A stretch of 64,000 nt of DNA from NCBI GenBank assembly GCA_963786725.1, contig CAWBAD010000002.1:125667-189666 (forward strand), given 5' to 3'. This document shows, in pieces, positions 23,779 through 34,794 of the stretch. The DNA is from an uncultured Actinomycetes bacterium. Its GTDB lineage: Bacteria > Actinomycetota > Thermoleophilia > Gaiellales > Gaiellaceae. The translations under genes were made by a program, and so were the position numbers. The notes below the pieces were generated by a model, which saw only the letters and a list, made by a program, of their open reading frames with translations, had not been told where the DNA came from and did not search any database. The first letter of the stretch is position 1. Each line of letters begins with the position of its first letter.

Positions 23779-26157
23779 CTAAACGACGGGAGTGCGCGTG
23801 ACCGAGGCGAGCAGGCGGCGCAGACCTTCCTCGAGCCGCACCTCCGGCTCCCAGCCGAGCACCTGGCGGGCGCGGGTGATGTCGGGCTGGCGCACCTGCG
23901 GATCGTCGACGGGCAGCGCCTCGAACACGACCGGGCTCTGCGAGCCCGTCACCTTGAGCACGGTATTTGCCAGCTCGAGCAGCGTGAACTCGTCCGGGTT
24001 GCCGAGGTTGACCGGGAGATGCTCCTCGCTCGTCGCGAGGAGATAGAGGCCGCGGATGAGGTCGTCGACGTAGCAGAAGCTTCGCGTCTGCGACCCGTCG
24101 CCGAAGACCGTCAGCGGCTCGCCGGCGAGCGCCTGGCGGACGAAGGTCGGGATCGCGCGGCCGTCGTGGGCACGCATCCGCGGGCCGTACGTGTTGTGAG
24201 CCATCACACCGGTCCCAGCCCAGAAGTTCTCATGCTCGGGTACCGAGAAGTCGTACACAAGAGGCGTAGCCTCGATCTCCCGGACTGCGGTCACGGCGGC
24301 CCACACGAGATCGCTCGTGCTCCGCGCATTGAGGCGCTGTGTAACTCCCGAGTCCCAGGCAAGCGGGCTCCAGGGAGAGACGTTCGCGAGAGTGAGACGC
24401 CAGAACGGGTAACGGCGCTCTCCCGTCTTTGCACGCAGGGTCGGCGTGTAACGACCAACCGAGGGGACCAAGCCGAAGCGGGCGAAGGCGACGATCGAGA
24501 TCGTCCTTGAGCTCGTCGTGGACGGTGGAAAACTCGTGCCGGACGCCTTCGGCCAGCTTCTTTCCGGAATGCACGCCGTCACCCTCTCGGTATCCCTCGA
24601 GGAACCACTTGAGCCGCGCGAGCGGCAGCCCGAGAATCCAGCCCGGGATTCGCTTGCGGTGTGTCGTCGAAGCCGAGGTAGTCCATGAGCCGCAGGAGTA
24701 GCTTCGAGTGAATGAAGATCGACGGCGCGCGATCTGTGTCGCCCCGCGCGCGAGTGACGTGAAGACCAAGGTGACGACGAACGATGGCTTCGGCGCGGTC
24801 GAGGAGCCGGCGGTCGCCGCTTATCGTCAGATGACGCGCTCTTGCCCTTCTCGTGCAGGCAGCCCTCTGCGACGTAGAGGCCGAGCAACCACAAGAGCTC
24901 GTCGGTGATGACGATTCGAGCGGGGAGAGGCACGCTACGACCCGCATGGTTGATGCCGCACGCGGGCTCCCCTGGCACCTCGTGGTCCACGCGGCGGAGA
25001 ACCGGCAAAGGAACTCGATCGCTCTCCCGCATGCGAATGAGCTTCGTCCACGCACCGTTCCGCCAGTTCGGGCCGTTGTTCCTACGCTCTGTCACGAGTA
25101 GGCCGAAGATGTCGAAGCGCTGTTCCCAGGCCAGCCGGCCGAGGCCCGGCGCTGGACAAGGAGATCCCAGGGATCGCCTTCGGCGTACTGCCATACATCG
25201 AGCATGCTCACTTCGCGCCGATCGCGTTCGGGGACGTCAATCCTCCGAGCGATTGCGATCCTGTCGCCAAGCTCGAGCGACTCGACCTCGCGTGGCACCG
25301 GCTCGCCGTCCGGTCCCTCGACGAAGACCGAGTGATCACCCGTGACGCGGATCGAGCGGCCGTAGCGAGTCTGCACCTCGAAGCACCGAGCGTCCGTGGG
25401 GTGGCCGATCAGCGAGCTCGCCGCGGCCGCAACGAGACGGCCGCCGTGCGTGAACGCCGGAACCGTGACGCCGTCGAGCGCGTACTCGACCGAGGGCGAT
25501 GTCAATACGGCTCCGTCTCGCTCAAGACAGCACGGGAACAGGTGAAGGAATCAGCCGGCCAGCGAGCTCGGACACCCGTTCACGCCGGAGCTCCTTCCCG
25601 TCGTCATAGAGCACTTGCTCGTCGGCAAGGATCGAATTGAAGATGCGGACGATCGACGTGTTGACGCCCTGCTGGCCGTGGTACGCCATCGTCAGCGCCT
25701 CGCCGTAGCGTTTCGCCTCGTCGTAGACGCCGCGCGGGCCGATCGGGTTCACGTTCCCCCAGTAGCTCTCGGGCTGGGGGTGCACGAGCGGGTCGCCGTA
25801 GACTTCGCTCGTCGACGCGAGCAGGAACCGCGCGCGCTTGAACTTCGCGAGGCCGAGCGCGTGATGCGTCCCGTGCGAGCCGACCTTGAGCGAGTGCAGC
25901 GGCTGCCGCATGTAGTCGATCGGGCTGGCGAGCGCGGCCAGGTGGAAGACGAAGTCCACCGGCCCCTCGATCTCGATCTGCTCCGTGACGTCATGATTCA
26001 GGTAGACAAAATCGTCGCCACGGATGTGCTCGAGGTTCTCGAGGGTCGACGTCTCGAGGTTGTCGACGCAGACCACGCGGTGGCCCTCCGCGAGCAGGTA
26101 GTCGCAGAGATGCGAGCCGAGGAACCCGGCCCCGCCGGTGACGACGCAGGTGCTCAT
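23779..26157 (-). CDS. UDP-glucuronate decarboxylase-type extended SDR (UXS/RmlB-like), interrupted by an intein
   Basis: N-extein 25636..26157: [21 protein letters not shown] (GxxGxxG), [19 protein letters not shown] (YxxxK), ...IVRIFN. C-extein 23779..24192: [45 protein letters not shown]...[12 protein letters not shown]. Joined, the exteins give an uninterrupted RIFNTYGPRM. Confidence 0.85.
24193..25635 (-). mobile_element. intein with LAGLIDADG homing-endonuclease domain (Ser1 ... His-Asn / Thr+1)
   Basis: Block A is [16 protein letters not shown] from 25635. Block B is [12 protein letters not shown] (25332-25343). LAGLIDADG motifs are LLGLYVAEG (24862-24885) and [10 protein letters not shown] (24575-24604). 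Blocks F/G are [40 protein letters not shown] (24193-24312). The 1443 nt keep both exteins in one frame. There are several internal frame changes. Confidence 0.85.
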
Positions 26158-26192
26158 CGATCGAACTCTAGCCCGCCGGAGTTCGCGGTTTG

Positions 26193-27129
<937 letters not shown>

Positions 27130-28047: not shown

Positions 28048-28957
28048 TGGGCGCCGACTGTAGCCGAGGCCCACTCCCACTGTGCCCGCAAGCCGTCCTC
28101 CAGCGAGACCTTCGGCGACCAGCCGAGCTCCGTGCGAATTCGCGTCGTGTCCGCGTTCGTGCGCCGCTGGTCACCGGGAACCGGCGGCTGCTCACGGATC
28201 TCCAGCGAACGGCCGGCGAGGCCCTCGAGGATGCCGATCGCCTCGCGCAGCGACGCCTCGACGCCGCCGCCGACGTTGTACGTGCCGCCGCCGCCGCCCA
28301 TGGCGAGGATCGTCGCGTCGACGACGTCGTCGACGTACGTCCAGCCGCGCGACTGCTCGCCGTCGCCGTAGAGGTCGAACGGCTCGCCGGCGGCGAGGCA
28401 GTGCACCACCTTCGTGAAGGCCATGTCCGGCCGCTGCCTCGGGCCCGAAGGCGTTGAAGTAGCGCAGGACGACCGCGTCGAGGTCGAAGCTGCGCGCCGT
28501 AGGCCCGGGCCAGGTGCTCGCACGTGAGCTTCGTGATGCCGTACGGAGAGACCGGCGCAGGCGGCGTGTCCTCCGGCGTCGGGTACCGCTCGGCCTCGCC
28601 GTACACGGACGACGACGATGCGAAGACCACGCGCACGCCGTCGCGCGCTGCGGCCTCGAACACCCGCTGCGAGGCGAGCACGTTCCGCTCGACGTAGAGC
28701 GGGAAGACGCTGCCGAAGCTGCGCACGCCCGGCTGACCGGCGAGATGAAAGACGCCGTCGAAGCCGGCGAAGTCGAGCTCGTCCACGGCCAGGTCGAGAC
28801 GCCTCACGTCCAGCCGTTCTGCGTTCTGCTCCTTGAGCCGCGGGTCGTAATGGTCGGTGAAGTTGTCGATGCCGACCACGTCGTCGCCGCGCGCGCCGAG
28901 CGCTTCGGCGAGCAGCGAGCCTATGAACCCGCGGCGCCTGTGACGACGTACTCTCAC
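28044..28957 (-). CDS. NAD-dependent sugar epimerase/dehydratase
   Basis: GTG 28955-28957, then (with two indels within 25 nt) VVTGAAGFIGSLLAEAL, FASSSSVYGE, SPYGITKLTCEHL (YxxxK), LYGDGEQSRGWTYVDDVV. It ends ...WEWASATVGAQ*. Confidence 0.8.
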
Positions 28958-32327: not shown

Positions 32328-32966
32328 GCCACCTCGTCAAACGGGTCGCGGATCCGGTGCTCGGCCGGGATCGCGCTCGTCCTGCTCAGCCCGGTGTTCC
32401 TCGCCATCTCGCTGTGGATCGTCGTCGAGTCGGGGCGGCCGGTCTTCTTCGTCTATCCCCGGGCGGGTAAAGACGGCAAGCCCTTCCGGATGTTCAAGTT
32501 TCGGACGATGGTGCAGGACGCCATCGAGCTCGGTCGCTCGACGGGCATCAGCCGCGATCCGTTCGGCGTCGTGAAGGACGATCCTCGCATCACCGGCGCC
32601 GGCCGCTGGCTACGCCGCACGAGCCTCGACGAGCTGCCTCAGCTCGCGAACGTCGTGCTGGGCCAGATGAGCCTCGTCGGGCCCCGCGCAGACCTCGTCG
32701 AGCAGGCGGCGCGGTATACGCCGGAGGAGGAGCGGCGGCTGACCGTGCTGCCGGGCATCACCGGCTGGGCCCAGGTGCACGGACGGGACAGCATCGGCTG
32801 GGCCGAGCGCTTCCGGATGGACCTCTGGTACATCGACAACTGGTCGCTCTGGCTCGACGTGAAGATCATCTTCTCGACGTTCGGCGAGCTGTTCCGCAGC
32901 GAGCCCGAGCCTGTCGAGGACGAGCTCAACATCGAGCGCGCGCGGGCCGCCGAGACCGAGCGTTGA
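32324..32966 (+). CDS. small monotopic phosphoglycosyl transferase (PglC/WecP-like 'bacterial sugar transferase')
   Basis: GTGA overlap at 32324-32327. ...LLSPVFLAISLWIVVESGRPVFFVYPRAGKDGKPFRMFKFRTMV, SLDELPQLANVVLGQMSLVGPRA, LPGITGWAQVHGR, DLWYIDNWSLWLDVKIIFST. Confidence 0.8.
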
Positions 32967-33914
32967 GGGAGGTTCCCGCCGGCGAGTGGGACGAGCTGCT
33001 CGCCGGGCTCGGCTGCGCTGACGCGTACCTCCTGCGGGCCTACGTCGAGGCGAGCTGCGTGCTCGATCCCGGCGAGCCGGTGCTGCTGGAGCACGACGGC
33101 TCGGTCCTGGCCTGCATCGTCGGGCGATCCCCGGCACGCGACGCGTATGACGTGACGACGCCGTACGGCTACGGCGGGCCAGTCGGCGCGCGGTTCCTTT
33201 CACGAAGCCGTACGAGCGCTGGTGCGCCGAGCGCGAACGTCGTCTCGACGTTCATCCGCTACCACCCGCTGTTCGAGAACTATCGCGGCGCACCGCACGC
33301 GACCTACGTCAGTCCGACGATCGGCTGGCCGCTGCGAGGGCGACCTGCTCGCGGGCATGCACGGCAAGCACCGCAACGTCGTCCGCAAGGCGCAAAAGGC
33401 CGGCGTCGCCGTGGACGCAACCCCCGCGCCCGACGACCTCTCGACGTTCGTCGCGCTGTACGAGCAGACGATGGAACGGCAGGACGCCACCGGGTACTAC
33501 TTCTTCCCAACTGAGTACTGGGAACGGCTCACCGCGCTCGGTGGCAACCTCGTGCGCTTCGATGCGCTGGCTGCCGGAGAGGTCGTCGCCTCGGCACTCT
33601 GCCTGCGCGGCGACCGCTGGCTCCACTACCACCTCGGTGCCACGGCTGATGCCGCGCGCGACCTCGGCGCCTCGAACCTCTTGCTCTACACGGCCGCTCT
33701 CTGGGGTCAGACGCAGGGCCTCGAGGAGTTCCACTTGGGCGGCGGCGCCGGAGCCACGGAAGACTCGCTCTACGCCTTCAAGCGGCGCTTCAGCCCGGAG
33801 GGCCGACGCGAGTTCTGGGTGGGAACGCTCGTCCACGACGAGGAGGCATATCGCCGCCTTTCTGGGCGCGCCGAGATCGACTACGAGGGCTTCTTTCCGG
33901 CCTATCGCGCGTAG
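32963..33914 (+). CDS. FemAB/CelD-like GNAT (Acetyltransf_6-type) protein
   Basis: TPYGYGGPVG, FIRYHPLFEN, GKHRNVVRKAQKAGV, FVALYEQTMERQDATGYYFFPTEYW, WLHYHLGATADAARDLGASNLLLYTAALWG, FHLGGGAGATEDSLYAFKRRF. TTGA overlap at 32963-32966. One frame change. Confidence 0.65.
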
Positions 33915-33917
33915 GGC

Positions 33918-34423
33918 TCAGGTGCGCATGCCGGTCGGCGGAACCGGGGGCTCGGCCACGATTCGCGGACGGCCGGATGGTCGAGCGGGCACGGCGCCAG
34001 CGTTGTCGACGAAGAGGCAGAGCACCCGGCCCTCCGGTCGCGCAGCGCTGGACGCAAGCAGCCCTCGCCAACCCTCGCGCCAAAGCTGCTCGCCGACGCT
34101 TTGATACGGCCCCCACGTCTTCCGCCCCGGAGCCGGCAAGTCGAGTCCGACTCTCCCGAGCCGGGCAGCACTGGTGAGATTGGCGACGCGGCCGGCGGCG
34201 ACCCGGTAACGCCACACGTCGCGGGGAAGCTTCATCAAGGGCGGAAGGCCATGCTCCGCAAGGTGCCGATACCACTCGGCCCAGAGCGTTGCCTCTTCGT
34301 CGGCGAGGTACAGCGCGTCCACGACACGCCCGCGTTGCCAGCGCCCGTTGCCGGGTGGATACGGCCGGCCGCGGGGATCCGCTCCGTGTGGGAGGTAGCG
34401 CAGCCACGTTCCGCTGACGTCAA
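33918..34423 (-). CDS. RES-domain toxin (MbcT/ParT-like NAD-targeting family)
   Basis: One frame stays open from about 34450 to TGA 33918-33920: ...GTWLRYLPHGADPRGRPYPPGNGRWQRGRVVDALYLADEEATLWAEW...GWRGLLASSAARPEGRVLCLFVDN. This carries the R, E and S signature positions. No canonical start lies upstream of the essential GRW arginine. A TTG at 34421-34423 is in a neighbouring frame. Confidence 0.75.
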
Positions 34424-34455
34424 TCGAGCCGACGTCGAGCGGCAGGGCGGTGTCC

Positions 34456-34794
34456 TCAGACCGCGCCGGGCGACTCGAGCTCGGAAATCACTCTCGCAAC
34501 CTGCCGCGCGCGGCCGCGGGCGATGAGGTGGAGCGGCTTCCGATCGTCGAGCGCCTCGATCGGCTTAGACATCCATACGGGGATGTATTCGGGCGGGATG
34601 ATGCGCGTAAGCCGATCGACGATCTCGGCCAGCTCCGCAACCCGTTCTGCCCGCTTGCCGGTCGGAGAGCTGCGACCGCTGAACCAGTCGCGGACGGTGC
34701 TGGGCGCTGCGCCGGTGGCCAGCGCAACCTGGGTGTCAGAGAGATGCCCGAGGTCGCGAATCCTGATCGCTTCCTCTGCGAATGCCGTCGCCAT
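34456..34794 (-). CDS. Xre-family antitoxin with DUF2384-type toxin-binding domain (MbcA/ParS-like)
   Basis: Intact 112-aa ORF. HTH is LSDTQVALATGAAPSTVRDWFSG. The C-terminus is PVWMSKPIEALDDRKPLHLIARGRARQVARVISELES. It lies directly upstream of the RES gene. Confidence 0.75.
   Translation of the reverse strand: MATAFAEEAIRIRDLGHLSDTQVALATGAAPSTVRDWFSGRSSPTGKRAERVAELAEIVDRLTRIIPPEYIPVWMSKPIEALDDRKPLHLIARGRARQVARVISELESPGAV

Follow-up and report, generated by a model that had tools for sequence, protein, structure and literature searches.

A probably mobile Ser1/Thr+1 LAGLIDADG intein in a predicted UDP-glucuronate decarboxylase gene of an uncultured Gaiellaceae bacterium

The DNA considered here is a stretch of 64,000 nucleotides, called the window below, from contig CAWBAD010000002.1 of an uncultured Actinomycetes bacterium of the family Gaiellaceae (assembly GCA_963786725.1, positions 125,667 to 189,666). 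On its minus strand lies a gene assigned as a UDP-glucuronate decarboxylase/UDP-xylose synthase (UXS), which is divided by a long in-frame insert. An earlier reading made from the letters alone, the sequence-only reading, had proposed that the insert is a LAGLIDADG intein placed at the motif RIFN/TYGP (the slash marks a splice junction here and below), and this proposal is borne out by profile, fold, alignment and comparative evidence. The two minus-strand open reading frames on which it was based, 25522..26415 and 23779..25194, are present as described, while the true start of the UXS gene is the ATG at 26157-26155 and the stop codon lies at 23781-23779. The parts of the gene are as follows.

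26157 to 23779, minus strand: whole precursor gene, UXS with the in-frame intein, aligning end to end with the 791-aa homologue P0001 in a frameshift-aware alignment
25636 to 26157, minus strand: N-extein, 174 codons, ending in SIVRIFN and containing GGAGFLGS, the TSE triad and YDEAK
24193 to 25635, minus strand: intein, 1443 nt as given, 1440 nt and 480 aa with five single-base indels corrected
25612 to 25635, minus strand: block A, Ser1-ILADEQV, with Ser1 in 46 of 46 parsed homologous loci
25398 to 25412, minus strand: NX motif LIGHP (His78), with the His in 43 of 43 homologues
25323 to 25358, minus strand: block B (N3), 12 residues, with TxxH (T98-G-D-H101) at 25343-25332; Thr98 and His101 in 43 of 43 homologues
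24862 to 24888, minus strand: LAGLIDADG motif 1, LLGLYVAEG, acidic residue Glu256, with Glu in 39 of 43 homologues
24575 to 24604, minus strand: LAGLIDADG motif 2, 10 residues, acidic residue Asp351, with Asp in 41 of 43 homologues
24214 to 24258, minus strand: block F, 15 residues
24193 to 24207, minus strand: block G, VMAHN, followed by Thr+1, with HN/T in 46 of 46 homologous loci
23779 to 24192, minus strand: C-extein, 137 codons and the stop, beginning TYGPRM and containing the UXS-specific Arg of DDPQVRQPD

The codons at the two junctions agree exactly with the insert ends, 25635 and 24193, that had been proposed. On the N-side the junction reads AAT/TCG, with the last Asn of the N-extein at 25638-25636 and Ser1 at 25635-25633, and on the C-side it reads CAC-AAC/ACG, with the His-Asn pair at 24198-24193 and Thr+1 at 24192-24190. 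The classification as an oxygen-nucleophile (Ser1/Thr+1) intein holds as well, both residues being found in all 46 homologous loci. Among the motif coordinates given earlier only those of LLGLYVAEG had to be changed, from 24862-24885 to 24862-24888.

It should be pointed out that the insert had been counted as 1443 nt or 481 codons, and that this count is an accident. A frameshift-aware alignment to P0001 contains five frame changes in the intein and none in the exteins, and a DNA alignment to the intact P0001 gene (locus L081, 85 % nt identity) has exactly five gaps, all of a single base. Four of them are insertions and one is a deletion, giving a net change of +3, and the true intein therefore has 1440 nt and 480 aa. 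The single surplus bases stand at 25526..25527 (indel 1), 24832..24834 (indel 3), 24661..24662 (indel 4) and 24496..24497 (indel 5), and the window lacks one base at 25154..25155 (indel 2).

The N-extein is free of indels when compared either with L081 or with L082, a 713-kb metagenomic contig (ENA ERZ25039490, contig_34063) that is colinear with the window from 36183 to 13744 at 91-94 % nt identity.

We now consider the host gene. When the exteins are joined, a 311-aa short-chain dehydrogenase/reductase (SDR) of the extended type is obtained, with a match to the Pfam family Epimerase at 1e-51. It aligns without gaps across the junction to human UXS1 (hUXS1, PDB 4GLL/2B69; E=7e-103), the best PDB matches being hUXS1 throughout, and likewise without gaps to P0121, an intein-free protein of 311 aa, at 97 % aa identity. 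The two halves abut at RIFN/TYGP, as the sequence-only reading expected them to do in a comparison with intein-less UXS. The residues named from the structure of hUXS1 as defining UXS are the Thr118-Ser119-Glu120 triad, Tyr147/Lys151 and Arg277, with Glu120/Arg277 as the pair specific to UXS (PMC3438964). In the joined exteins the GxxGxxG of the NAD fold, the Thr-Ser-Glu triad (ASTSE), the YxxxK motif (YDEAK) and the equivalent of Arg277 (DDPQVRQPD) are all kept. On account of these residues and of the alignment to hUXS1, the host gene is predicted to encode a UDP-glucuronate decarboxylase, that is, a UDP-xylose synthase.

The insertion site lies in a part of the enzyme where the host columns R171, I172, F173 and N174 on one side, and T, G and R on the other, are invariant. 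Since the insert interrupts the enzyme midway, within an invariant motif, the unspliced precursor would be expected to be inactive. No second UXS gene was found in the 64-kb window, and it is for this reason reasonable to suppose that the supply of UDP-xylose from the locus would depend on splicing.

Turning to the insert itself, profile matches were computed on its frame-corrected translation. Significant matches were obtained to both the splicing and the endonuclease families, a check that had been proposed together with the original assignment. The score against Pfam Intein_splicing (PF14890) is 62 bits (7e-17; cut-off 35.8), and that against Pfam LAGLIDADG_3 (PF14528) is 23.7 bits (6e-5), marginally over the cut-off of 22.5. 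The terminal models TIGR01445 (intein_Nterm) and TIGR01443 (intein_Cterm) give 25.4 and 19.4 bits (cut-offs 24.5 and 15.6, respectively), and the best full-length NCBIfam models are those of the intein-bearing archaeal RNA polymerase A'' (1.4e-18), Tes and RFC. In the PDB the best sequence match is PI-PkoII (2CW7) at 1.7e-15, followed by the Mja TFIIB mini-intein; the alignment to PI-PkoII consists of three colinear stretches that correspond to the N-splicing, endonuclease and C-splicing parts.

The fold was examined through P0001, whose intein has 86 % aa identity to that of the window. The AlphaFold model of this homologue has a mean pLDDT (predicted local distance difference test) of 76.7, and its intein part matches 2CW7 best (E=5e-25) and also the TliVMA intein (template-modelling score, TM, of 0.80), PI-PfuI and PI-SceI, while its extein halves match hUXS1 with a TM of 0.84. 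The six in-frame pieces of the window intein are colinear along a hidden Markov model (HMM) of the family, positions 1-479, and wherever a column is conserved to at least 90 % in the 43 homologues, the window copy has the consensus residue.

A histidine in the NX motif, about 20 residues upstream of block B, has been described as specific to Ser1 inteins that use oxyester chemistry (Pasch et al. 2023, PMC10189870). His78 of the present intein aligns with the RH of PI-PkoII. The residue preceding the histidine is Gly in 27 and Ala in 16 of the 43 homologues and never Arg or Lys, which were reported as invariable in 58 catalogued Ser1 inteins (PMC10189870). In some homologues the acidic residue of a LAGLIDADG motif is missing, namely Glu of motif 1 in 4 of 43 and Asp of motif 2 in 2 of 43. 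Such losses in a few members are as expected in the homing cycle. We also observed that P0241, the representative of the UXS-intein 50 % cluster, has Lys at the penultimate position (VMAKN/TYGP), where His is otherwise invariant; it and the homologues without the acidic residue may be degenerating members. Judged by these motifs and matches, the insert is very probably a genuine class-1, cysteine-less Ser1/Thr+1 LAGLIDADG intein, and probably a mobile one.

The intein is far from unique. When it was searched against 5.8 billion proteins, with cluster matches counted at E<=0.001, more than 1157 protein clusters matched, and all of the 120 best matches listed are UXS/SDR proteins of about 800 aa that carry the intein. 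The site NTYGP, for which a homologue search had been recommended, is hence already populated in the databases. In a scan of one genome per GTDB species, at least 97 Actinomycetota species genomes encode the intein with 51-71 % identity, and the taxa comprise Solirubrobacteraceae, Gaiellaceae, Thermoleophilaceae, Conexibacter, Rubrobacteraceae, Acidimicrobiia and Nitriliruptorales. The 46 loci that were parsed all read RIFN/S(I/V)L...HN/T(Y/F)G. Many of the proteins are automatically named "epimerase/intein/homing endonuclease" by JGI, and at NCBI epimerase/dehydratase only. A search of IMG/VR viral contigs and plasmids gave no copy of the intein, and in phages there are only remote matches to the endonuclease domain, with 27-30 % identity. 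Running the family HMM over the six-frame translation of the window revealed no second intein.

In the literature the situation is different. Full-text searching brought up no paper that describes an intein in UXS, in another extended SDR or in any nucleoside-diphosphate-sugar epimerase/dehydratase. In a 2015 survey the only sugar-nucleotide enzyme among the top hosts is UDP-glucose dehydrogenase (10 inteins, Euryarchaeota), and the bacterial hosts fall for 61.5 % in COG category L and for 21.7 % in category F (PMC4760082). The UXS site is thus atypical with respect to the published host list, yet it is not rare in databases. The earlier remark that a sugar-nucleotide host is unusual holds relative to that list, but not as a statement about rarity, and UDP-glucose dehydrogenase is a precedent. 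The element in the window is another member of a family abundant in databases, and what is new here is the syntenic intein-free allele, the nesting among intein-free alleles, the contrast in G+C at third codon positions (GC3) and the same-motif inteins in other SDRs, all of which are described below.

Considering the HMM matches, the fold of the homologue, the gap-free extein alignment and the invariant catalytic residues together, we hold it to be highly probable that a genuine intein of class 1 (Ser1/Thr+1), equipped with a two-motif LAGLIDADG homing endonuclease, occupies RIFN/TYGP of a UXS gene in a Wzx/Wzy-type locus of a soil actinobacterium, and that the frameshifts are noise. In the mechanism that we propose, a precursor of about 791 aa would be translated, in which Ser1 would undergo an N-O acyl shift. 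The resulting oxyester would be attacked by Thr+1 in a transesterification, after which cyclisation of the terminal Asn480 would free the 480-aa intein and an O-N shift would restore RIFN-TYGP, to yield the active 311-aa UXS. The freed intein could then cut intein-free alleles site-specifically (...ATCTTCAAC/ACGTACGGC...), and be copied into the cut allele by double-strand-break repair.

The evidence for mobility comes from close relatives without the intein. The alleles closest to the joined exteins are all intein-free proteins of 311 aa, in about 40 clusters, with 89-97 % aa identity. The nearest one, P0121, is found at the corresponding place in L082, where the order of the genes also agrees (epimerase, Wzz, GT2, UXS and a convergent GT4), and its extein identity to the window is 95 % at the nt and 97 % at the aa level. 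The empty site in L082 reads ...CGTATCTTCAAC/ACGTACGGCCCG..., also written ...GTCCGTATCTTCAAC/ACGTACGGCCCGCGA..., and the flanks in the window read ...CGCATCTTCAAT/ACGTACGGCCCG.... In terms of extein distance, the nearest intein-bearing allele (P0001, 0.089) is threefold further away than the nearest intein-free one (0.030). In a neighbour-joining tree of 182 extein alleles over 311 columns, built without support values, the allele of the window lies inside a group of 34 intein-free ones, P0001 falls in a separate small intein-free group, and at least 15 changes between presence and absence are needed. For the clade that joins the window and P0001, parsimony prefers two gains over at least six losses. 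The target motif IVRIFNTYGPR is present in 93 of 120 intein-free alleles. These comparisons show a presence/absence polymorphism between close relatives and a sporadic distribution.

Base composition was examined as well. For GC3, the exteins reach 0.92-0.94 and the intein only 0.78, a contrast that L081 shows too. The contrast in total G+C content that had been described from hand counts was overstated, since the values are 65.1 % for the intein, 66.5 % for the N-extein, 70.3 % for the C-extein and 70.7 % for the window; the part of it that stands is the one at the third codon position. We have also looked for a co-conversion tract at the junction. Identity to L082 dips weakly there (0.88, the mean being 0.95), and the donor type is found at 3 of the 5 neighbouring informative sites, but this is not significant and the tract was rejected.

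Several points weigh against our interpretation. For a catalogued Ser1 intein, Arg or Lys would be expected before the NX histidine, where Gly or Ala is found here. The extein tree is a neighbour-joining tree on 311 columns without support values, and co-conversion at the junction is no more than weakly hinted at. Across genomes, the identity of the intein is correlated with that of the exteins (r=0.57), and there are no near-identical inteins in distant hosts; for these two reasons much of the history of the intein appears to be vertical, and recent homing is not directly demonstrated. Splicing and cleavage activity are inferred only, for every member of the family, and the window as given has no continuous frame for the precursor, owing to the five indels.

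Some of these points suggest another scenario, in which the intein is an old and essentially vertical resident, possibly acting as a conditional-splicing switch on UDP-xylose supply, and the intein-free relatives are precise losses. Between the window and L081 the synonymous divergence (dS) of the intein, 0.64, is near that of the exteins, 0.51-0.54, which speaks against a strictly recent spread. The correlation just mentioned and the absence of outliers indicating recent transfer fit the scenario, as do the range of the allele over several actinobacterial classes and the loss of endonuclease acidic residues in a few members. The parsimony count in the clade of the window and P0001 goes the other way, and so do the foreign-like GC3 and the presence of this intein lineage in SDR hosts that are not orthologous, which implies lateral moves. 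Moreover, purifying selection is equally strong on the endonuclease domain and on the splicing domain: relative to L081, the ratio of non-synonymous to synonymous divergence (dN/dS) is 0.108 for the intein and 0.118 for its endonuclease part, compared to 0.09-0.10 for the exteins, with no stops. For the switch there is no evidence of a regulatory trigger, and the Ser/Thr nucleophiles rule out a redox switch. On balance we consider an old vertical resident to be unlikely.

The lateral moves are indicated by inteins in other hosts. When a 121-aa piece of the intein was run with HMMER over 1.84 billion cluster representatives, 133 matches were obtained. Several of them are extended SDRs from other subfamilies, in which a homologous intein likewise follows the FN motif. 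The following four metagenomic proteins are compared with the window.

P0255: RIFN/SVL...HN/SFAP, extein identity 33 %, intein identity 42 %
P0295: RPFN/SIL...HN/TYGR, extein identity 24 %, intein identity 29 %
P0297: RPFN/SIL...HN/TFGE, extein identity 28 %, intein identity 36 %
P0308: RFFN/SIT...HN/SYGP, extein identity 27 %, with a shortened intein of 355 aa and no LAGLIDADG match

In all three full-length cases (P0255, P0295 and P0297) the intein is closer to that of the window than the host is. These alignments indicate that one intein lineage is common to paralogous hosts at a structurally equivalent site, and this points to lateral moves between paralogous SDR hosts. We put forward tentatively, as a possibility that falls a little short of being the expected one, that one mesophilic, bacterial lineage of cysteine-independent Ser1/Thr+1 LAGLIDADG inteins is actively circulating in soil Actinomycetota and colonising FN/T or FN/S in UXS and at least three other SDR subfamilies, and that the family is undescribed in the literature. 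If this is the case, it would constitute a large intein family outside replication and repair, in which the NX motif has a variant form (Gly/Ala-His) and from which protein engineering could draw new cysteine-less inteins.

The frame breaks have to be addressed next, as they could mean that the frameshifts are biological and that the gene is a decaying, intein-bearing pseudogene from which no UXS is made at the locus. What gives this idea its appeal is that all five breaks lie in the intein, with none in the 936 nt of extein. At the background rate about four indels would be expected in the exteins, which makes an indel-free extein only mildly unlikely. Elsewhere the window has indel-free runs of 1,122 and 1,553 nt, which exceed the exteins in length, and the clean exteins are therefore unremarkable; an excess of frameshifts in the intein over the exteins was accordingly rejected. 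With 1 per 289 nt, the indel density of the intein is not above that in ten other genes of the window compared with their homologues (55 frameshifts in 11,992 nt, 1 per 218 nt), nor above that of the comparison with L082, where 89 gaps occur over 21 kb, about 1 per 250 nt. Of the latter, 84 are single-base, with 67 insertions and 17 deletions (roughly 4:1), and they are not tied to homopolymers, an identical base adjoining only 22.

The substitutions, on the other hand, resemble those of working genes. With the indels projected out, 21 genes with 6,620 codons contain only 2 stops, and the codon differences in these genes amount to 834 synonymous and 408 non-synonymous. The intein behaves like these neighbours, with no stops once corrected, dN/dS of 0.11 and all conserved residues kept, so that purifying selection acts on both the splicing and the endonuclease parts. 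Because only the indels break the genes, we attribute the five frameshifts to sequencing or assembly error that runs through the window, instead of decay, and a pseudogene appears very improbable to us. The sequence-only reading had already remarked that the frame of the intein changes in the same way as that of its neighbours, and the single-base indels are indeed window-wide and not specific to the intein. Nearly every gene is broken in this manner (13744-36183, and probably the whole window) with its substitutions constrained, which means that any frame-based reading of the window needs an indel correction first and that the frame breaks are not biology.

A chimeric assembly join, a concern that had been raised earlier and has nothing specific in its favour, or a Hint insertion that does not splice (of the bacterial intein-like, BIL, type or a fused domain) can practically be dismissed, since the same architecture is found with the same junctions in 46 of 46 parsed loci from independent assemblies and in 120 of 120 listed proteins, out of more than 1157 clusters matched, synteny with L082 extends on both sides up to the junction, Ser1, TxxH, HN and Thr+1 are invariant, and the split invariant motif of the host has to be religated.

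It is instructive to compare the intein with known systems. PI-PkoII (Tko Pol-2, 2CW7) and the inteins of Mja TFIIB, rPol A'', RFC and Psp-GBD Pol share with it the oxyester chemistry of Ser1 and Ser/Thr+1, the NX histidine followed some 20 residues later by TG(D/S)HS(L/V)F, the two-motif LAGLIDADG endonuclease and the terminal HN. The hosts of that group are archaeal replication and transcription proteins, whereas here the host is a bacterial sugar-nucleotide SDR; the sequence identity is only about 22 %, and the NX histidine is preceded by Gly/Ala in the UXS inteins and by Arg/Lys in the PI-PkoII group. With respect to host class, there is a likeness to the inteins of UDP-glucose/GDP-mannose dehydrogenases of Euryarchaeota (for example Mja UDP-GD), which also sit in a sugar-nucleotide enzyme of COG category M (PMC4760082). 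UDP-glucose dehydrogenase makes UDP-glucuronate, the substrate of UXS, but host fold and site differ from those of the UXS intein, and the organisms are archaea.

The same host and site are found in proteins annotated as 'nucleoside-diphosphate-sugar epimerase/intein/homing endonuclease' from metagenome-assembled genomes of Thermoleophilia and Acidimicrobiia (for example P0001, P0008 and P0113), the inteins of which are 51-86 % identical. The window copy differs from them in that its nearest extein relatives, with 95-97 % aa identity, are all intein-free. Finally, the InBase entry 'Ter Ndse-2' from Trichodesmium erythraeum appears in a supplement among NX inteins with Ser1 and Ser+1 or Thr+1. 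'Ndse' may denote a nucleoside-diphosphate-sugar epimerase, in which case an intein in an extended SDR would have been catalogued long ago. A search for the host with a fragment derived by optical character recognition gave no candidate.

As to the surroundings, the intein-bearing UXS gene lies in a Wzx/Wzy-type polysaccharide locus of about 22 kb (window 13983-35945, projected from L082). It encodes an initiating transferase (Bac_transf), a sulfotransferase, GT87, several GT4 and GT2 enzymes, Wzz, a polymerase (Wzy_C), a flippase (Polysacc_synt), a methyltransferase, a polysaccharide deacetylase and two more SDR epimerases. Also within it, at 33918-34794, are an HTH_3 (Xre-like) and a RES-domain gene, forming a toxin-antitoxin-like pair. 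Compared with L082, the RES gene is 77 % identical at the aa level and the Acetyltransf_6/FemAB gene next to it (32963-33921) 80 %. These two are much more divergent than their neighbours, which have 93-97 %, and there is a 7-nt insertion near 33907. An SDR epimerase-like gene at 28171-28947 is the only one of the 21 projected genes that has in-frame stops (two) after indel correction; its counterpart in L082 has only 258 aa, and the gene may be truncated or degenerate in both genomes. A tRNA and Rfam search had no match anywhere in the window.

For splicing under oxidising conditions there is a demand for natural Ser1/Thr+1 inteins of mesophilic origin (PMC10189870). The UXS intein family, with its hundreds of variants in which the NX motif is unusual, may be of value for engineering. 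As regards the hosts of inteins, about 80 % of those in bacteria are found in proteins of DNA replication and repair and of nucleotide metabolism (PMC4760082). This picture is broadened by an intein that is widespread, apparently mobile and housed in an enzyme making a glycan precursor, and it would mean that the synthesis of cell-envelope polysaccharides depends on protein splicing in many soil actinobacteria.

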